A stretch of DNA of 64,000 nt from a virus, in IMG/VR virus record IMGVR_UViG_3300021964_000024, positions 1 through 64,000 of that record, one strand, 5' to 3'. A program made the translations under genes and the position numbers. Of this stretch, positions 1-9,712 are shown in pieces. Position 1 is the stretch's first letter; every line of letters starts with the position of its first letter. The notes beneath the pieces were generated by a model. It searched no databases and had not been told where the DNA came from. It was given only the letters and a program-made list of their open reading frames with translations.

Positions 1-3000
1 GCGGGGAAGTTCTGATATAACAAGTTTGATTGATCTGAGTAACGAGGTTGTCCTGCAGCCGCAGTAAATGTCACAACACTATCACGAGTCGATGTACGAG
101 TATATGCACTGACACGGTTTCTTACACTGGTGCGACTGTATGCAGAGAATCTGGTTCTCGTTGAAATACGAGTGTACGCAGAAACTCTGTTACGAGTACT
201 GATTCGAGTGTAAGCACTTACACGGTTTCTAGTATAATCTGTTGCACGAGTTCTACTGTATGCAGAGTATCTTGTTCTCGTTGAAATACGGGTACTGTCA
301 CGAGTATAGGCAGATGGACGAGTACGGGTACTGATTCGAGTATAGTTACCCGTAAAGTTACCCGCATAGAATCCGGTACGCACATAGTCACCCACGAAGT
401 TACCCGCATAGAATCCTATGCGAGTGTAGTTACCCGTGAAGTCACCTGCATAGAATCCTATACGAGTGTATGGTAAAATACGAGTTGACGTTCTTGTACT
501 GATACGAGTATAGTTACCTGTATACGACAGAATTCTAGTATAGTTACCTGTGTAATACAGAATTCTAGTATAGTTACCAGTGTAGTATACAATACGTGAG
601 TAGTTTCCAGTGAAGTTACCTGCATAGTAACCAGTACGCACATAGTTACCAGTATAGTTTACAATACGAGTGTAATTTCCAGTGAAGTTACCTGCGTAAT
701 AAAGAGTACGTGAGTAGTTACCAGTAAAGTTACCCGCATAGTAACCAGTACGCACATAATCACCCGTAAAATAATTACCTGTCTTTGGCCCGAATCGATC
801 ACGAGTATAGTTCAATATACGAGTTGATGTACGAGTCGATATACGAGTGTATGAAGCAGCCGCTGCTCTAGTTCGAGTTGATATACGAGTGTAAGCAACA
901 GTTGCGGGTCTAACACGAGTATATGCCAGAATACGAGTTGACGTTCTTGTACTGATACGAGTATATGCAACAGTTGCAGCACGTGCACGAGTGTACGTTC
1001 CGGTTGCGGTACGTATTCGAGTATAGGTGCCTGTCGCAGTACGAATACGAGTATAGTTTCCAGTGAAGTTACCTGCATAATAACCTGTACGGTTATACGT
1101 CAAAATACGAGTTGACGTGCGGGTAGATATTCTGGTATAATCTAAGATACGTGTACTAGTTCGAGTACTTGTTCTTTGATAGTTAAGAATTCTTGTTGAG
1201 GTACGTGTTGAGATACGAGTATAGTTTCCAGTATAGTTACCTGCAAAGTTACGGGAATAGTTACCTACAAAGTTGCCTGTATAGTTCCCTACAAATCCAC
1301 GTGCATAGTTCCCTACGAAATTACCAATATAGTTACCAACAAAAGTTCTGCTGTAGTTACCCGTATAATTTCCGACAAAAGTTCTAGAATAGTTACCTGT
1401 GTAGTTACCCGCAAATCCACGTGAGTAGTTACCGACATAGTTACCTACAAAGGTTCTAGAATAGTTACCTGCAAAGTTACCAGAGTATGCAAGAATCTCA
1501 TCACGAGTATATGTAGAAATACGACCACGTGTACTAGTTCGAGTATAGGTAGAAAAACGAGTACGTGCAGAAATACGTGTAGAAGTACGTGCGTAGTTAC
1601 CTACGTAGTTTCCTGCAAATCCACGTGCGTAGTTACCGACAAATGTTCTGGAGTAGTTACCGACAAATGTTCTTGAGTAATTACCTACGAAGTCACCCGT
1701 GAAAGTGACAAGACGATCAATTATATATGCAGAAGGACGACCACGTGTGTAATTACCTACAAAGTCACCTGCATAGTTCGAGGGACGTGTTCTAGTGTAA
1801 GTTGACACACGAGTTCTAGTGTAGTTTCCTACAAAGTTACCTGCGTAAGTAGAGTTTCTAGTTCTGGTGTATGTAGATACTCTGGTACGTGAGTAGTTAC
1901 CTATAAAGTTACCCACGAATGTAGTTGTATAATCATCAATATATATTGATGATCGAGTTCTAGTATAAGTCGATACACGAGTTCTTGTACTGTTACGAGT
2001 GTAAGCAGATACACGGTTCCTTGCATAGTTACCTATGTAATCGCCCAAGAATCCTCTGGTACTGGTTCTGGTATATGCACTTGATCTGTTTCGTGTATAT
2101 GCAGAAACTCTGGTTCTACTGTAAGTATCAGAGTAAGTGGACACACGAGTACGACTATAATTACCGACAAAGTTACCAATGTAGTTGCCGATAAAGTCCG
2201 TGGTATATGCAGAAGTACGAGTTCTGGTGTATGAACTAATACGGTTACGTGTACTGTTTCTGGTGTATGTAGAAAAACGAGTACGAGCGTAATTGCCTAT
2301 GAAGTTACCGACAAACGTATTGAGACTATCACGAGTGTAAGTCGAGATACGATTTCTACTGTAGTTACCTAAAAAGTTTCTTGAGAATGTGTTCGTGCTA
2401 TTACGAGTATAAGTTGAGACACGGTTTCTTGAATAGTTTCCAGTATACTCTCCTGCGTAATCTCCTGCAAAACCACGAGTGTAGTCACCAATGAAATTAC
2501 GGGAGAAGTTACCTATGTAATCCCCAATGAAATCACGAGCGAAATTTTGAGTACTGTTTCTAGTGTACGTTGAACCACGAGTACGGGTGTAAGCTGATCC
2601 ACGAGTTCTCGCATATGAGGATGCACGAGTACGAGTATATGCAACCTCAGAAGTTGTTCGTCTGGTATTAGTCGCAGTCCCTTTGGATGCCCAAGTTCCT
2701 GCAGCGGTTGGTGCACCTTGAGTAGCAGAGCGTAACTGATACGATCCAATTGCACCTGATACACCACGCAATGTTTTACAGTGTTGACCCAGTGTAAACT
2801 TGATCTGCGGATCAGTCATCTCTTGAAGACCACCAAATGATCCTGCCGAGTCTGATCCTATGAGACCTACCGATTGGATTTGTGTCGGTGCGGTCATTGC
2901 TGTTCGTTTGTAGATGTTATAAGTCGATATAGTACCATTGGCGGTAGTGTCTTCGAAGACTCCAGAAATGTGAGTTGAGTAATCACCACTTGGAGAAGAA

Positions 3001-3443
3001 GAACCTAATTTATATACGCCTGGGTAATCAGATGTCGCAATACGTGAGTTCAGACGTGTACACAAAGTGTCCATGTCTGAGTCTGTAAACTCATGAAGAC
3101 CTACGTTTCCGGATGCATTCCATCCGGCGGGACGAACGTAATTTGCATTACTCAGATCACCTGCAGTAATGTTACCACCCTTTTGATACAGAGTAGTTGT
3201 AGTTGATCCGGAAGTAATTGCAGATGCGGGATGAGTACCGTCTGGTTCGTTGTAAAAAGTATCAACAAAAGAACCTATGTTGGTTCCTTGAGCATTTACG
3301 TTTAGAGATCCGTTACCTGTAACCCCTGCTTCACCTAACTTTAATCCCGCCTGATAGGCCAAATAGTTCTCTTCCGTAGGAGTCATCTCCTTCAGATCAC
3401 CATTTGTTCCTTCTAATTTTAGTGGGATATTAGACGCAGCCAC
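1..3443 (-). CDS. Self-complementary tetrapeptide-repeat virion fibre protein, paralog 1 (>1147 aa, runs off the left end; absent from ORF track)
   Basis: Hand translation from GTG at 3443 gives MAASNIPLKLEGTNGDLKEMTPTEENYLAYQAG..., homologous to the N-terminus of 3493..6411. The frame is open to position 1. Repeats start at 2639 (YTRT RASS ... FVGN YSRT). A late promoter lies at 3478-3485. Confidence 0.9.
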   Translation of the reverse strand, partial: MAASNIPLKLEGTNGDLKEMTPTEENYLAYQAGLKLGEAGVTGNGSLNVNAQGTNIGSFVDTFYNEPDGTHPASAITSGSTTTTLYQKGGNITAGDLSNANYVRPAGWNASGNVGLHEFTDSDMDTLCTRLNSRIATSDYPGVYKLGSSSPSGDYSTHISGVFEDTTANGTISTYNIYKRTAMTAPTQIQSVGLIGSDSAGSFGGLQEMTDPQIKFTLGQHCKTLRGVSGAIGSYQLRSATQGAPTAAGTWASKGTATNTRRTTSEVAYTRTRASSYARTRGSAYTRTRGSTYTRNSTQNFARDFIGDYIGNFSRNFIGDYTRGFAGDYAGEYTGNYSRNRVSTYTRNSTNTFSRNFLGNYSRNRISTYTRDSLNTFVGNFIGNYARTRFSTYTRNSTRNRISSYTRTRTSAYTTDFIGNYIGNFVGNYSRTRVSTYSDTYSRTRVSAYTRNRSSAYTRTSTRGFLGDYIGNYARNRVSAYTRNSTRTRVSTYTRTRSSIYIDDYTTTFVGNFIGNYSRTRVSTYTRTRNSTYAGNFVGNYTRTRVSTYTRTRPSNYAGDFVGNYTRGRPSAYIIDRLVTFTGDFVGNYSRTFVGNYSRTFVGNYARGFAGNYVGNYARTSTRISARTRFSTYTRTSTRGRISTYTRDEILAYSGNFAGNYSRTFVGNYVGNYSRGFAGNYTGNYSRTFVGNYTGNYSRTFVGNYIGNFVGNYARGFVGNYTGNFVGNYSRNFAGNYTGNYTRISTRTSTRILNYQRTSTRTSTRILDYTRISTRTSTRILTYNRTGYYAGNFTGNYTRIRTATGTYTRIRTATGTYTRARAATVAYTRISTRTSTRILAYTRVRPATVAYTRISTRTRAAAASYTRISTRTSTRILNYTRDRFGPKTGNYFTGDYVRTGYYAGNFTGNYSRTLYYAGNFTGNYTRIVNYTGNYVRTGYYAGNFTGNYSRIVYYTGNYTRILYYTGNYTRILSYTGNYTRISTRTSTRILPYTRIGFYAGDFTGNYTRIGFYAGNFVGDYVRTGFYAGNFTGNYTRISTRTRPSAYTRDSTRISTRTRYSAYSRTRATDYTRNRVSAYTRISTRNRVSAYTRISTRTRFSAYSRTSVRNRVSAYTRTSTRDSVVTFTAAAGQPRYSDQSNLLYQNFP

Positions 3444-3492: not shown

Positions 3493-6411
3493 TTAGGCTG
3501 TACGAACATATAACGTATATGTGTCAACGGCAAGTACCGTGTTGCCGATTGTTTGACCTACGTAATCTCCTATAAAGCTTCTTGAATAATTTCCTACAAA
3601 CGTGCGTGAGTAGTTACCAGTATAGTTCCCCGCAAAACCACGAGAGAAATTTTGAGTACTGTTTCTAGTATATGTAGAGACTCTTGTACGAGTAAAGTCT
3701 CTCGTTGATGTACGAGTTGAATCTAAAGTACTGTTTCTAGTGTATGCACTTATACGAGTTCTGGTATAGTTACCAAGGAAGTCGCCAGTGTAGTTACCTG
3801 TATAATCTCCCACATATGCTCTAGCGTAATTGCCGACATACGCAGACGGTCTGGTTCTTGCGAAAGAACTTGTTCTGTTAACCCTTGTGTAATTACTGAC
3901 ATAGTTACCCGTGTAATTTCCTGCGAATCCACGTGTATAATTTCCTACGTAAGCTGCATCAATTGTGTAGGAAGACACTCTGGTTCTATTGTACGAAGAA
4001 AGACGAGTACGAGTCGAGGTTCTTGTACTAATACGAGTATAGTTTCCTATATAGTCACCCGCAAAGTTACGAGTGTAATCACCCACGTAGTTACCTGCAA
4101 AGTTACGAGTAAAGTTCCTTGCATAGTTACCTGTATAGTTGGGTATGTAATCACCTACGTAGTTACCCGTAAAGGTTCTGTTGTAGTTACCCACGAATGC
4201 ACGAGCGTAATTACCAACATACGCACGTGAAAAATCTTGAGTGAAGTTTCCTCCAATATAGTCACCTGTGTACACGTCCTCGTTGATGTAATCACCTACG
4301 TAGTTACCTGCAAAGTTACGAGAGTAAGTAGAAGATCGATTTGCTGTACTATCTCTAGTATAGTCACCAATAAAGAATCCAGTACTATCACGAGTATAGG
4401 CAGAGAACCTAGTTGTGGTGAAGTTACGAGCGAAACCACCGGCACCATAATCACCAATAAAATCACCAGTGTAATAGAATGTAGACGCTCTATCTCTGGT
4501 AAAGACCTGTCCAGATTTAGGTTCTCCTACGTAGTCACCAGTATAGTATACTGTATTGGTACTTGTTGCTGTACGATTACGAGTATAAGAGAGACCGGCA
4601 TAATCACCAATGTAATCAACATTTCTAGTAAATACAGATTCACCTGTTTTTCTAGTAGTCACAAATCCAGTATATTCAAAAACGGATGTTCTGGTTCGAG
4701 TGTAATTAGGTATAAAGAGTCTAGAGAAATTACCTGTAAACGATCTCGAATAATTACCTGCATATTGTACTACCCTATCTCTTGCATACTCACCAATGAA
4801 ATTGCCAGCAAAGTTGCGTGAGTAGCTAGACACTCTAGTACGTGTAGAGGTACGAGTAAAATTCGAAGACCTAGTTCGAGTGTAATTTCTAGAGAAGTTA
4901 CCTGTAAAGTTTCTGGTATAGTTACCCGCATAGTTACGAGTGTAATCACCTGCGTAAGAAGATGGTCTAGTACGTGTTGACGTTCTAGTAAACCCTACAG
5001 TTCTTGTATAATCATCACTGTAGTTTCTAGCATAATTCGATACACGAGTACGTGTAGAAGTACGAGTATAATTCGAGGGACGGGTTCTGGTTGAAGTCCT
5101 CGTGTAATTACCTAAGTAGTTACCGGCAAAATTACCTGCGAATCCACGACTATAGTTACCAATAAAATCCCTAGAGAAGGTAGAAAATCTGTCTCTGGTA
5201 TATGCAGAAGTTCTAGTGCGTGTTGATACTCTAGTAAAGTTACCGGCATAGTTACCCGTATATCCATCAGGGTCAGTATAGTTACCTATGAAATTACGTG
5301 AGTATTCACCTGCAAAATTACGAGAGTAAGTGCCTATGTAAGTGTCTGAAAAAACACTAGTACTATTACGAGTATAATTACCTAAGAAGTTACGTGAGTA
5401 GTTACCAGTAAAGTCTCCGGTATAGTTACCAATATAATCTGCAGTATAGTCACCAATAAAGTTTCTGGTATAGTTACCTGTAAAGTCACCAAGATAATTT
5501 GATGTTCTGGTTCTAGTAGAGACTCTAGTATATGCACTTGATCTGTTTATAGTATACGTAGAAACTCTTGATCGAGTATAGTTCTGTTCGTCTACTAGAC
5601 GAATTGTATTTGTTGCAGTTCCTTTTGATACCCATGTACCTACTGCGGGTGCACCCTGAGTTGCAGTACGAATTAAATAAGATCCAAGGTTATCTTGAAT
5701 CGCTCTACGAGTCTTTGCACGTTGTCCAAGAGTGACCTTAACTTGACGATCAGTTACTTTCTGTAATCCTTGATATGTACCAGACGATCCACTACTTCTC
5801 TTAATCGACATGATAGCAGATTCACCATTCTTATCGTCACGAATAGAAGTGGGTGCGGTCATAGAAGTTCTACGCCAGACACTATAATCGTTGATCGTAA
5901 ATGCACTACCTGAACTGTCTGCACGTTGATCCACAAGAATACTTGGAACCAATATATCCCAGTCAGCACTAGGACGGGTTGCAGAAAGTCTCAGAGAGCC
6001 AGGATACTCAGATTGTGCAATTCGAACGTTTAGATCGTCTACGAGAGTGTTCAGATTAGAACTGTTCATCTCATAGACATCACCGTCAAAGTGTGCTACA
6101 GGTAATCGGAAATCACTATCGGTTTCTGCCGCAGTACCGTTGATCTGATATATGCTTTGTGACGTAGTAACAACAGACTGTTGATCGTATGGGTGAGTTC
6201 CTACAGGTTCAGGAAAGTACGTATCGGTCAGTGTACCAATAAGTCGGTTGCCAGTAGATGTGGTTGTAAGAAGACCGACATCTGAACTATCGGCCACAGC
6301 ATTATGACTACCTACTAAGTATGCAAGGTAGTTTTTCTCTGCAGAGGTGATCTGTTGTAGCTTACCATCACTGTCTTTTAACTTTAACGGTAATGCCTTA
6401 TTATCCGACAT
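3493..6411 (-). CDS. Self-complementary tetrapeptide-repeat virion fibre protein, paralog 2 (972 aa)
   Basis: About 277 aa globular N-domain, then about 670 aa of [YF]xG[ND] / xTRx / RxSx units, then a short C-terminal strand; lies in the tail-fibre region. Confidence 0.85.
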   Translation of the reverse strand: MSDNKALPLKLKDSDGKLQQITSAEKNYLAYLVGSHNAVADSSDVGLLTTTSTGNRLIGTLTDTYFPEPVGTHPYDQQSVVTTSQSIYQINGTAAETDSDFRLPVAHFDGDVYEMNSSNLNTLVDDLNVRIAQSEYPGSLRLSATRPSADWDILVPSILVDQRADSSGSAFTINDYSVWRRTSMTAPTSIRDDKNGESAIMSIKRSSGSSGTYQGLQKVTDRQVKVTLGQRAKTRRAIQDNLGSYLIRTATQGAPAVGTWVSKGTATNTIRLVDEQNYTRSRVSTYTINRSSAYTRVSTRTRTSNYLGDFTGNYTRNFIGDYTADYIGNYTGDFTGNYSRNFLGNYTRNSTSVFSDTYIGTYSRNFAGEYSRNFIGNYTDPDGYTGNYAGNFTRVSTRTRTSAYTRDRFSTFSRDFIGNYSRGFAGNFAGNYLGNYTRTSTRTRPSNYTRTSTRTRVSNYARNYSDDYTRTVGFTRTSTRTRPSSYAGDYTRNYAGNYTRNFTGNFSRNYTRTRSSNFTRTSTRTRVSSYSRNFAGNFIGEYARDRVVQYAGNYSRSFTGNFSRLFIPNYTRTRTSVFEYTGFVTTRKTGESVFTRNVDYIGDYAGLSYTRNRTATSTNTVYYTGDYVGEPKSGQVFTRDRASTFYYTGDFIGDYGAGGFARNFTTTRFSAYTRDSTGFFIGDYTRDSTANRSSTYSRNFAGNYVGDYINEDVYTGDYIGGNFTQDFSRAYVGNYARAFVGNYNRTFTGNYVGDYIPNYTGNYARNFTRNFAGNYVGDYTRNFAGDYIGNYTRISTRTSTRTRLSSYNRTRVSSYTIDAAYVGNYTRGFAGNYTGNYVSNYTRVNRTSSFARTRPSAYVGNYARAYVGDYTGNYTGDFLGNYTRTRISAYTRNSTLDSTRTSTRDFTRTRVSTYTRNSTQNFSRGFAGNYTGNYSRTFVGNYSRSFIGDYVGQTIGNTVLAVDTYTLYVRTA

Positions 6412-6427
6412 TCTACTTCCTACTTTG

Positions 6428-9400
6428 TTAGTTTAGTAGAGTGCCACTCTCATCATAGATTAGGACAGCCCTACTTGCTAGTTCGTTCAACGCATTAACG
6501 ATATTATCATTATTTATACTCGCAGTAGCGAAGAATCCACCGTCCGTACTTGAGTCTAAATTATACAGTTTTCCAACTCTTGAGTCAAGTTCCGCAATGT
6601 CACTGTCATTTGAGACTATATCAGCATGGAGTTCGTTGATACCACCCGCAACATCTTGTGCAGTAGTATCAAGGTTTTCGTCTGTATGAAGAGCACGTCC
6701 ATGAATCTCGACTTTACTTGCAGTCATCTCCACCGCAAGAGTAGATCCAGACCAGATATCTAGTTCACCACTACTGTTCTGTAAACGACCAAACTGAGTT
6801 CCTGCATCCTTGAGGTATATGTCACCACCATCTGCATCAAGAGTGATATCTCCTGCAACATCATATGTCAAGGATCCTACAACATCAATCTCTTGGTTGG
6901 TGCCAAGGTTGTAGGTCAACTTAGTTACTGCATTATCCTTAAAGAATATATCCGCACCGTTTGCATCTAGTACGATGTCACCGTCTGCATCCAATGTGAT
7001 ATTGGATCCTGCAGTGATAGTTGTGTTACCACCTGAAGTGATACTCTGGGTTGTTCCTGCAGTTGATGCAATTGCACCTGTCGCAATCTCTGAGATACTT
7101 GCAGCACTATCTGTTAGTGCACCAGTTATAGTGTTTGCATGGTTTCCTGTGGTTGCAACAGTATTTGTTGTACCTAAAGTATAACCGATACGGGTTGTAC
7201 CCGCATCCTTTAAGGTGATGTTGTCACCACCTGCATCTAATACTATATCACCTGCAACGTCAAGTGTCAAGTTACCAGATGGAACATCAATCTCTTTGTT
7301 TGTTCCTGCAATGAATTCGAACTGAGTAGTACCGTTGTCTTTGATGTAGGTGTTCCCACCATCAGCATCAAGAGTAATGTCTCCTGTTGCGTCTACGATA
7401 AAGTTACCAGATACGTCTACCTCTTGATCAGTACCAAGATTCCAAGTAAGCTTTGTTACACCTGCTTGTTTGAAGTAGATATCATCTCCGTCTACGTCAA
7501 GAGAAATATCTCCGGACGCATCTACTACAAAGTCCCCAGTCACATTGTGGGTTTGCCCCAATGACGTTGTAGTCAAAGTACCTAAAGTAGTACTTGACAT
7601 ATTTCCAGTAGATGTTATACTGTATGTACCATTCGCTGAATCAGAATAGTTACCTGATACTGTACGGTCTAGATTACCAGTGACATCCAGAGTATTCGTT
7701 GCACCCATACCATACGCAAATCGTGTAGTACCTGCGTCTTTGAAATCAATGTCTGCACCGTTTGCATCAAGGACAATATCCCCTTCTGCATCTACAGTAA
7801 AGTTACCCTCTGCATCAATAAGAGCATTACCCCCTGCAGCGATAGTAGCGTTACCATCGGCAGTCATGGCGATTGCACTGTTAGTATATACAGTGAATCC
7901 ATCGGATGCATTTATTGTACGGATACCGGATGCTGAGTCGGTGTGATCACCAGTAACATCCATTGTGTAATTACTAGATACCGTTTGTGCAAGTGATCCA
8001 GTTACATCTAAAGTATTGGCAGCACCCATACCATATGCAAAACGAACAGTCGTACCATCTTTTAGGTCGATGTCACCACCGCCAGCATCTAGAACGATAT
8101 CAGTTTCAACGTCATAGGTCAGAGATCCTGCAACATCAATCTCTTGATCTGCACCTAAGTTATACGTAAACTTGGTCTGACCACCGTCTTGAAAATAGAT
8201 GTCTGCACCGTGAGTATCCAAAGTGATATCATCAGATGCATCTACTTTATAAGTTCCGGTCACTGTATGGAGTTGTGCACCAGACTTAGTGTTGAATGTG
8301 CCAGAAGTGCTAACGTCAGTGTTTCCAGTCGCACCGATATGATACGTACCTGCTGCACTGTCTGAGTAATTACCCGATACGGTTTGTGTTAGGTTTCCAG
8401 TGACATCAAGTGTATTGGAAGCACCCAACCCGTATTCAAAACGAGAGTTTCCATTATTTTTGAAGGTAATGTCGGTTCCACCGGCATCAAGTACAATATC
8501 TTGAGCAACATCAAGAGTATATCCTGTTGCTCCGGACACGGTATGTAAATAGTTTCCTGTGGATGCTAACGTTAATCCCGATCCACCTAATGTGTAGGTT
8601 TGATGATCCCCACCATTCAATTGAAGTTTAAAGACATCATTAAGTTGGAAAGTGACATTGCCCTCAACATCCGCAAGATAGTTTCCACGGACAATATGTG
8701 TCTGACCATAACTAAGAGTATCTAAAGCACCAGTAGCACCAATATGGTAGGTGCCATTTGCACTGTCTGACATATTACCAGATGTGGTCTGAGTAAGATT
8801 ACCTGTAATGTCTAATGTGTTGGTTGTACCAAGTCCATATTCGAAACGAGAAACACCTGCGTGTTTAAAGTCGATATCGTTACCACCTGCGTCGAGAACA
8901 ATGTCTCCCGCAACGTCATAAGTCAAAGAACCTGCTACGTCTACTTCTTGGTTTGTACCCAAGTTGTAAGTAAATTTGGTTGTTCCTGCTTGCTTAAAGT
9001 AGATGTCATCTCCATCTACGTCAAGTGTAATATCTCCTACTGCATCTACGATGTAGTTAGAAGGTGCAGCAATTGTGAAGTCTGCGTTATCTGCAAGAGT
9101 GTGAGTTACAGTATCAGCACCCGCACCGTTCTTAAATACGATGTCGTTGCCGTCTGCATCAAGAGTGATGTCTCCACTTGCATCTATTAATACGTTACCA
9201 GTTACCGTGGCAGTCAGATTACCACCAGAGGTAAAGTCCATGGTGCCAGTTGCGTTCAGATCATATAGACCAGAAACGTCAATATCATAAGCACCAGTTA
9301 CGTTCTGGTAGTTGGTTGTACCTAAAGTAAATGCAATGCGATTGACTGAATCATCAAGGAAATTGATGTTCGATCCACCTGCATCTAAATTGATATCTGC

Positions 9401-9712
9401 GACAGCATCTATGAATGTATCATTACCTGATTTCAGGATGATATCAGTACCACCATTCTGAGCAGTAGAGATTAGGAGTCTAGTGTTAGTTTCATAACTA
9501 GAACCTTCGTCCCATTTACTTCCGTTCTGGGGATAAAGAATTTCACCCGAAGAAGCATCGAATACCAGTTCAATTTCGTTGATAGCAGATACAACATCAC
9601 TATCATTATAGGTATTGAGGTCAACGGGATCGCCTACGTTATAAGAAACCGTATTGAGATTGTCTCTTAGTATCTTGAACGAGTCGCTTAATCTTGTAAA
9701 AGGACGTGCCAT
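6428..9712 (-). CDS. Long tail fibre/spike with beta-helix repeats
   Basis: About 13-14 copies of DI[TV]LDAxGxDIxFK; short helical motifs (VSAINEI, AGGINEL, VNALNEL) at both ends, typical of trimeric fibres. Confidence 0.7.
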   Translation of the reverse strand: MARPFTRLSDSFKILRDNLNTVSYNVGDPVDLNTYNDSDVVSAINEIELVFDASSGEILYPQNGSKWDEGSSYETNTRLLISTAQNGGTDIILKSGNDTFIDAVADINLDAGGSNINFLDDSVNRIAFTLGTTNYQNVTGAYDIDVSGLYDLNATGTMDFTSGGNLTATVTGNVLIDASGDITLDADGNDIVFKNGAGADTVTHTLADNADFTIAAPSNYIVDAVGDITLDVDGDDIYFKQAGTTKFTYNLGTNQEVDVAGSLTYDVAGDIVLDAGGNDIDFKHAGVSRFEYGLGTTNTLDITGNLTQTTSGNMSDSANGTYHIGATGALDTLSYGQTHIVRGNYLADVEGNVTFQLNDVFKLQLNGGDHQTYTLGGSGLTLASTGNYLHTVSGATGYTLDVAQDIVLDAGGTDITFKNNGNSRFEYGLGASNTLDVTGNLTQTVSGNYSDSAAGTYHIGATGNTDVSTSGTFNTKSGAQLHTVTGTYKVDASDDITLDTHGADIYFQDGGQTKFTYNLGADQEIDVAGSLTYDVETDIVLDAGGGDIDLKDGTTVRFAYGMGAANTLDVTGSLAQTVSSNYTMDVTGDHTDSASGIRTINASDGFTVYTNSAIAMTADGNATIAAGGNALIDAEGNFTVDAEGDIVLDANGADIDFKDAGTTRFAYGMGATNTLDVTGNLDRTVSGNYSDSANGTYSITSTGNMSSTTLGTLTTTSLGQTHNVTGDFVVDASGDISLDVDGDDIYFKQAGVTKLTWNLGTDQEVDVSGNFIVDATGDITLDADGGNTYIKDNGTTQFEFIAGTNKEIDVPSGNLTLDVAGDIVLDAGGDNITLKDAGTTRIGYTLGTTNTVATTGNHANTITGALTDSAASISEIATGAIASTAGTTQSITSGGNTTITAGSNITLDADGDIVLDANGADIFFKDNAVTKLTYNLGTNQEIDVVGSLTYDVAGDITLDADGGDIYLKDAGTQFGRLQNSSGELDIWSGSTLAVEMTASKVEIHGRALHTDENLDTTAQDVAGGINELHADIVSNDSDIAELDSRVGKLYNLDSSTDGGFFATASINNDNIVNALNELASRAVLIYDESGTLLN
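6511..6518 (-). promoter_or_regulatory. T4-type late promoter TATAAATA (inside the 3' end of the upstream fibre gene)
   Basis: Exact consensus 100 nt upstream of the 6411 start. Confidence 0.6.

Follow-up and report, generated by a model that had tools for sequence, protein, structure and literature searches.

Our data show that a 972-residue protein of an uncultured T4-like marine phage contains two long repeat arms whose four-residue units are complementary in mirror order, and suggest that this protein folds back on itself to form a thin beta stalk of the baseplate or tail fibre. The gene lies in a tail-fibre gene block within the first 64 kb of the 105.8-kb IMG/VR virus contig IMGVR_UViG_3300021964_000024, and these 64,000 nucleotides are the window analysed here. 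Its open reading frame (ORF), which we term paralog 2, occupies positions 3493..6411 on the minus strand, stop codon included. Searches of Pfam and PHROGs gave no match for the ORF, and neither phmmer nor a family profile matched it to any PDB sequence. What we observed directly is that the arms are complementary in mirror order, that this complementarity is anchored at the domain boundaries and recurs in relatives, and which genes surround the ORF.

Mirror complementarity of the two repeat arms

Paralog 2 has three parts: non-repeat residues 1-276, about 670 residues of repeats, and a non-repeat end of 22 residues. The N-terminal globular domain (aa 1-276; 5584..6411, minus strand like all features of this ORF) terminates in a conserved GTW..KG.A.NT motif. 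It is followed by an outgoing (5') repeat arm (aa 277-555; 4747..5583), a tip region of degenerate repeats (aa 556-669; 4405..4746), a returning (3') repeat arm (aa 670-950; 3562..4404) and a C-terminal closing strand (aa 951-972, ending in GQTIGNTVLAVDTYTLYVRTA; 3496..3561). The repeats consist almost wholly of four-residue units of the types [YF]xG[ND], [YF]xRx, STRT and RxSx. They lack His, Cys, Trp and Met (0 His among 674 residues), carry a net charge of +46, and show the strict residue alternation typical of beta strands. An initial annotation of the sequence had placed a self-complementary repeat at 3565-5580, which is exactly aa 278-949, and the strings it quoted are correct: RKTG at aa 587-590, PKSG at 631-634, YTDPDG at 381-386 and YINEDV at 709-714.

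A second ORF in the window, paralog 1 (3..3443, minus strand, at least 1147 aa), has the same N-terminal domain and repeat grammar; it is incomplete because the window begins at the contig start, which cuts the ORF and leaves an outer arm with no partner in the data. Around its RFGPKTGNY segment (aa 883-891), the two sides share an identical series of unit lengths when written antiparallel. STR-rich 14-mers lie opposite Gly-rich 14-mers, and the two types swap sides at one place. Among 232 pairs in this hairpin, Gly lies opposite Thr 38 times (8.3 expected) and Asn opposite Tyr 20 times (5.2 expected), and Arg is found opposite Thr, Ala or Val. We built a pair log-odds matrix from these 232 pairs only, the sole use made of paralog 1, and then applied it to paralog 2 as an independent probe. 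Our test was a gapped antiparallel local alignment, and the null was generated by shuffling natural units while keeping composition and grammar.

We found a single dominant alignment of paralog 2 with itself, running from an outer pair 277:950 to an inner pair 555:670 and comprising 270 pairs with few gaps (score 121.8). Shuffled units scored 70.4 +/- 9.5 with a maximum of 105.8, and none of 250 shuffles reached the observed score (z score 5.4, unchanged under harsher gap costs). When units were shuffled inside each arm separately, z was still 4.4. The same rule thus holds in both paralogs despite their different unit order, as the initial annotation had proposed, since a matrix trained on one detects the other. 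Its more specific claim, that the first 17 tetramers mirror the last 17, is borne out by an ungapped run of 69 pairs, placed without any offset search and scoring 55.5, the best of 301 offsets (next best, 24.2). Sliding one arm by whole units reduced the score per 100 pairs from 67 to 13 or less, and out-of-phase slides gave strongly negative scores. Pairing covers the repeats from the first unit to the last and starts exactly at the domain boundary on each side; 0 of 80 shuffles reached both. Measured from domain boundary to innermost pair, the arms are 279 and 281 residues long.

The pairs follow a simple chemical pattern. Gly lies opposite Thr in 33 of 50 cases (8.1 expected) and never opposite Gly, Tyr lies opposite Asn 29 times (7.8 expected), Ser opposite Ser 20 times (6.7 expected), and 50 of 72 Arg residues face Thr, Ala, Ile or Val. 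The Gly counts of the two arms are anticorrelated (r = -0.67). At the level of units, those with Gly face Arg units in 32 of 46 cases and other Gly units in only 4, and 37 of 44 Arg units face either Gly (23) or Ser (14) units. The Gly-bearing arm switches aperiodically along the stem, in runs of 5, 7, 3, 1, 1, 3, 4, 5, 8 and so on, which makes the single register unique. The mirror complementarity of the two arms is real and statistically solid.

Base domain, tip and relatives

We ran AlphaFold2 (AF2) on paralog 2 with a 54-sequence alignment, and on the tip (aa 497-730) as a single sequence. Residues 1-280 were predicted mostly with a predicted local distance difference test score (pLDDT) above 90, and the last 22 residues with 81-96. 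Two long strands, 260-286 and 942-970, lie side by side and lead out of the base domain, and no helices are predicted. Structural alignments of the confident part span model residues 44..972, so the C-terminal strand belongs to the base domain in the model. The initial annotation had anticipated a return of this strand to the N-terminal domain, and the predicted contact between the two ends agrees with it: in the predicted model, and there only, both termini meet in a proximal base domain. VIA-align gave weak matches of this domain (Z 5.2-6.9) to the beta domains of Mp2Ba1 and perforin-2 and to MABP, those of the beta-prism or MABP-like kind at Z 5.7-6.9; all are too weak for naming a fold. 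Foldseek against PDB and BFVD returned nothing below E 0.09. A gp10-C or collar-like base domain, which we also considered, found no support in a sequence profile search.

The tip region, enclosed by the innermost pair 555:670, contains two turn motifs, RKTG (4642..4653) and PKSG (4510..4521). A homologous tip is present in L011, the closest full-length relative, which has 64% identity to paralog 2 over the best tblastn segment. There, RKTG aligns with GPKG and PKSG with QEKG, so the two-turn layout is conserved between the two proteins; [PR]K[ST]G is not a turn signature across the family. A forked tip of two hairpins, as the initial annotation pictured it, is plausible from these motifs, but the stems around them scored negative or within the shuffle null under a sparsely trained matrix, and AF2 gave the isolated segment a pLDDT of 28. 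The same annotation read YTDPDG (5254..5271) in the outgoing arm and YINEDV (4270..4287) in the returning arm as bulges. Both irregularities do coincide with gapped, poorly matched stretches, the first poorly matched on both arms and the second opposite a gap in the outgoing arm; true bulges are a plausible interpretation of this coincidence. The overall interpretation put forward in that annotation is therefore partly supported.

A search with the N-terminal domain of paralog 2 identified 64 protein-database clusters of 544-1604 aa, mostly unnamed and otherwise labelled only 'hypothetical protein' or with a gene-call label, and a family profile search of IMG/VR identified 234 relatives, all sharing this domain. 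A search of IMG/VR with the single paralog 2 protein found no close relative, matches in the ESM Atlas (at 0.81) were all to unnamed viral clusters, and a literature search on tetrapeptide repeats, phage fibres, hairpins and C48C1 found no description of the family. We found no solved structure of this kind either. From IMG/VR we retrieved 79 related loci (L011-L089) for context and alignment. The N-terminal domain and the C-terminal strand are conserved jointly in proteins of 524-3347 aa. The strand is nearly invariant: nearly all full-length members terminate in ETYTLYVR[TVI]A, with T964, T966, L967 and Y968 (paralog 2 numbering) invariant.

We aligned relatives of 524-1227 aa with the paralog 1 matrix and shuffle-tested ten with longer stems. 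Nine gave z scores of 6-13.5, and L011 gave 2.9; some stems are very long, with 353-373 pairs (scores 153-193, z 7-13.5). The outer pair falls exactly at the base in P0005 (277:702 of 724 residues), P0006 (281:854 of 876) and P0012 (277:764 of 786). Among 41 distinct IMG/VR ORFs, it lies exactly 8 residues after the end of the N-domain and 22 before the end of the protein in six, and within 1 residue of this in two more; the 277:950 pair of paralog 2 has the same offsets. Arm length was again taken from the domain boundary to the innermost pair and so relies on one alignment coordinate only. In 10 of the 21 ORFs scoring at least 50, the two arms are equal within 2 residues, at arm lengths from 111 to 410 residues (r = 0.90), and the others have an extra stretch in one arm, possibly a branch or an insert. 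In the family ORFs of L045, L050, L021, L020, L024 and L069, the two arms differ in length by 64-178 residues, which suggests side branches or one-sided inserts in the stalk.

In some relatives, a non-repeat globular domain of about 170 residues sits precisely between the two arms, as a distal tip at this place would predict. One such member, L047:10537-13365 (+), and its tandem paralog (L047_2_2663) have this domain (…GRNVVITFQF…RLDVWYIDDPDDD…) between perfectly complementary arms, and it is a candidate receptor-binding tip domain. Phage C48C1 was the sole carrier of the family in the collection of phage genomes that we searched. Its CDS0201 (L001:11992-22035, +) encodes 3347 aa with the same base domain and an ETYTLYVRVA end. 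The first third of this protein is rich in Arg and Ser and the last third in Gly; it contains six or more globular inserts, and a stretch of about 75 residues (…KTRHRSYLYYSTDTSTNQQFFEPRVDD…) is duplicated exactly within it. A structural protein of Synechococcus phage S-RIM2 was considered as a relative and rejected, the match being a mere run of (V/L)TG(N/D) units. That protein (L010:1396-7134, +) contains about 150 residues of pure (V/L)TG(N/D) tetrapeptides with neither Arg units nor a partner arm; here a similar four-residue Gly unit serves a cyanophage fibre protein in another way.

A probable fold-back beta stalk and its alternatives

We consider it fairly probable that paralog 2, as a protein of the baseplate or tail fibre, forms a fold-back beta stalk with its base closed by both termini and a variable tip encoded mid-gene. 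Both the logic of the sequence and the relatives support this reading well. The chain would leave the globular N-terminal domain, extend outward for about 280 residues as a strand of four-residue units, reverse in a tip of about 115 residues, and run back for about 280 residues antiparallel to the outgoing arm; the conserved last strand would then insert into the N-terminal domain and close the base. Register would be fixed by side-chain complementarity between facing units. A [YF]xG[ND] unit would lie opposite xTRx, with Gly against Thr, Arg against the small residue at position 2, and the aromatic residue against Asn or Asp, and [YF]xRx units could alternatively face RxSx units. Because the Gly-bearing arm switches aperiodically, only one register fits, and any gain or loss of units has to be matched on both arms; such a barcode would block slipped registers in a monotonous repeat, and the matched length changes that it forces are as seen in relatives.

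Pairing of alternating residues at i+j = constant is as in direct neighbours of an antiparallel beta pair, and we infer physical beta pairing of the arms, as well as the shape and length of the fibre, its attachment site and receptor binding at its tip. Mid-gene would correspond to the distal tip, the likely site of host contact. Fully extended, the stalk would measure about 90 nm; this value and the free fibre of about 100 nm raised in the initial annotation come from arithmetic (280 residues x ~0.33 nm) rather than observation. A bolder proposal, which we rate as possible and a little short of even, is that the family uses a true code for protein pairing: side chains of facing units would complement each other in a degenerate but position-specific way (Gly units against Arg units, Arg units against Ser units), and this would serve as an aperiodic barcode that alone fixes the register and permits matched insertions, internal loops, branches and inserted tip domains, in the manner of RNA secondary structure.

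Several observations weigh against a fold-back stalk. AF2 gave a pLDDT of about 30 for all repeats and so offers no structural evidence for it, and a lone two-stranded ribbon so long would probably be unstable. Of 90 aromatic-led Gly or Arg units, 10 face their own type in the best alignment, and the fit is poor around aa 372-390 against 843-866 and around 486-500. Grammar alone gives partial matches, since unit shuffles already average 70. Residue-by-residue comparison with the closest relative found 11 double changes that keep the rule and 11 that break it, and covariation at residue level over five orthologues is ambiguous because repeat alignments are unreliable. Many distant relatives give no significant signal under the paralog 1 matrix, which does not detect those with Lys/Gln-type units. 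The presence of the protein in virions, finally, is indicated by gene context only.

The mirror pattern might instead reflect alternating inward and outward faces of arms that do not touch. Both arms would then line a third element, or be part of a larger trimeric beta assembly, such as a six-stranded needle or prism, whose strands would have mainly other chains as neighbours. Phage fibres are mostly trimers, and the T4 gp37 needle reportedly consists of three out-and-back chains; the fragility of a single two-stranded ribbon of ~90 nm and the gp5-like triple beta-helix protein encoded by the adjoining gene point the same way. We nevertheless judge this arrangement unlikely, because the complementarity is residue-specific at i+j = constant (Gly:Thr, Tyr:Asn), as for direct cross-strand neighbours, and out-of-phase slides are strongly penalised. 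A trimeric assembly is in any case compatible with the fold-back stalk, which it would extend rather than contradict. It is quite unlikely that the arms pair between chains, in antiparallel molecules that swap the C-terminal strand into the partner's N-domain and so form a rod or network twice as long with bases at both ends. A self-complementary mirror pattern fits a hairpin or an antiparallel duplex alike, as with a nucleic-acid palindrome, and AF2 gave no confident fold-back of the repeats; however, the in-cis position of the C-terminal strand has high confidence in the AF2 model, and both termini are conserved as a unit in proteins of 524-3347 aa. Short, turn-like centres with motifs of Gly, Pro and Lys are present in paralog 2 and in relatives, with loops of 19-70 residues, and in some relatives the arms are separated by a compact globular domain.

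A disordered, low-complexity Tyr/Gly/Arg/Asn/Thr segment, acting as a linker or as a phase-separating or adhesive tail, would account for the low pLDDT throughout, with the mirror match as a by-product of grammar and regional composition: shuffles reach 58% of the observed score, and one arm with its unit order reversed still scores 95. We find this very improbable given that none of the 250 shuffles attains the score, that 0 of 80 are anchored at both ends against eight relatives anchored within 1 residue, and that in 10 of 21 strong relatives, spanning a four-fold range of length, the arms differ by no more than 2 residues. The repeats also lack a Pro/Gln/Ser-rich disorder signature, and their strict alternation is that of beta strands. 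Finally, an inverted repeat at the level of the nucleic acid, acting as mRNA structure or recombination substrate, could translate into complementary-looking peptides, since the codons for Gly (GGN) and Arg (CGN/AGR) are at least partly the reverse complements of codons of Thr/Ser/Ala type. The middle bases of codons for paired residues are complementary in 0.385 of pairs against 0.24 under random pairing, and those of Gly:Thr and Arg:Thr are compatible with reverse complements, but this enrichment is forced by the amino-acid pairing rule itself. Complementarity at codon positions 1 (0.27) and 3 (0.29) does not exceed the random level of 0.31, GGT codons pair mostly with ACT rather than ACC, Tyr:Asn codons are not reverse complements, and no inverted DNA repeat longer than 19 nt was found. 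On these codon-pair statistics and the absence of long inverted repeats, the symmetry resides in the protein; we reject a DNA or RNA palindrome as its source and regard this origin as practically negligible. A recent tandem DNA duplication was likewise rejected, since the direct repeats are old and degenerate (60-80% identity) and cannot yield mirror order.

If the fold-back stalk is real, its register would be set by a simple unit code instead of a hydrophobic core, and protein design would gain a set of natural rules for aligning strands across hundreds of residues. It would also account for a large family without Pfam or PHROG match (234 IMG/VR relatives, usually two per genome), and would place the probable host-recognition tip mid-gene, which bears on host-range prediction for uncultured marine T4-like phages. 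If the pairing code itself holds, it would amount to a fibrous protein architecture of a new class and offer a natural template on which to program the pairing of beta strands. The family marks a class of proteins on which current structure predictors fail completely.

Gene neighbourhood and known systems

Upstream of paralog 2 and on the same strand, starting from the baseplate end, lie genes for a gp6-like wedge protein and other wedge or connector proteins and then for a 2117-aa protein (phrog_358), followed by an 89-aa virion protein, a 1094-aa gp5-like beta-helix repeat protein, and paralog 2 itself. The 1094-aa protein (6428-9712, minus strand) has repeats of about 40 residues (…DITLDADG.DI.FK…), matches DUF2345 and the gp5-like PHROGs 430 and 9992, and probably folds into a triple beta-helix, as a very long spike or fibre. 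This gene order is kept in relatives, with the large protein at 65 of 79 loci, the small one at 47 of 79, and the gp5-like protein, upstream on the same strand, at 41 of 79. Two copies of the N-domain lie within 8 kb at 55 of 78 loci, so mirror-arm genes as a rule occur as tandem pairs in this phage group, and the arrangement is not special to this contig. Judged by gp6, C48C1 (40% identity) is the closest of the sequenced phages, ahead of Methylophilales phage Melnitz, Pelagibacter phage HTVC008M and S-PM2 (~34%). Antisense to the repeat region lies an ORF of 194 codons (4237-4821, plus strand), whose self-match is weak and stop-ridden; it is most likely a by-product of the repeat codon pattern rather than a gene.

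We compared paralog 2 with several known systems. Its period of 4, with Gly at position 3 of about half of the units, and the absence of a Pfam match led us to reject a pentapeptide-repeat or collagen-like protein. T4 gp5C, a triple-stranded beta-helix of VxGxxxxx octapeptides (PMC3004832), shares with paralog 2 a short Gly-containing repeat, its status as a T4-like baseplate protein and, as proposed for paralog 2, a long thin beta structure, but has a period of 8 with a Val/Gly signature, against a period of 4 with an aromatic residue at position 1. Its chains are parallel and intertwined, so mirror complementarity of gene halves is neither expected nor needed. The gp5_C and DUF2345 models do not match paralog 2, while the neighbouring protein P0003 matches DUF2345 and phrog_430. 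An RNA stem-loop, as a purely conceptual comparison, shares the reverse-order pairing rule, the aperiodic register barcode, the internal mismatches and the keeping of pairing while sequence drifts. The rule in paralog 2 differs in being degenerate and steric or chemical, between side chains, and clean compensatory covariation is not demonstrable for it.

The nearest topological precedent is the needle of the T4 long-tail-fibre tip protein gp37, a structure reportedly described by Bartual and colleagues in 2010 (PDB 2XGF). This needle contains seven irons (PMC6957217). It shares with paralog 2 its place in a baseplate/tail-fibre module and, on the fold-back model, an out-and-back chain with both ends at a proximal collar, a mid-sequence tip and a thin all-beta stalk. 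Paralog 2 has no sequence or profile match to any PDB chain, gp37 included, and the C-terminal modules of gp37, gp12 and gp10 are absent from its Foldseek and VIA-align lists, though a distant fold relation may exist. With no His in its repeats, its arms have no HxH iron sites, which gp37 has. Its stalk would be several times longer, at about 280 residues per arm, and gp37 lacks its four-residue grammar with complementarity between Gly and Arg units.

SMC and Rad50 proteins have antiparallel, intramolecular arms of alpha-helical heptad coiled coil, an ATPase head and an apex encoded mid-gene. On the fold-back model, their logic is shared by paralog 2: the termini join in one head, the antiparallel arms are equal and co-vary in length, and the apex lies mid-gene. 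Paralog 2 differs in its alternating, beta-type four-residue repeat without predicted helices, and in having no enzymatic head. If real, its stalk would represent an undescribed way of building a long thin fibre, and a beta counterpart of the SMC/Rad50 arm.

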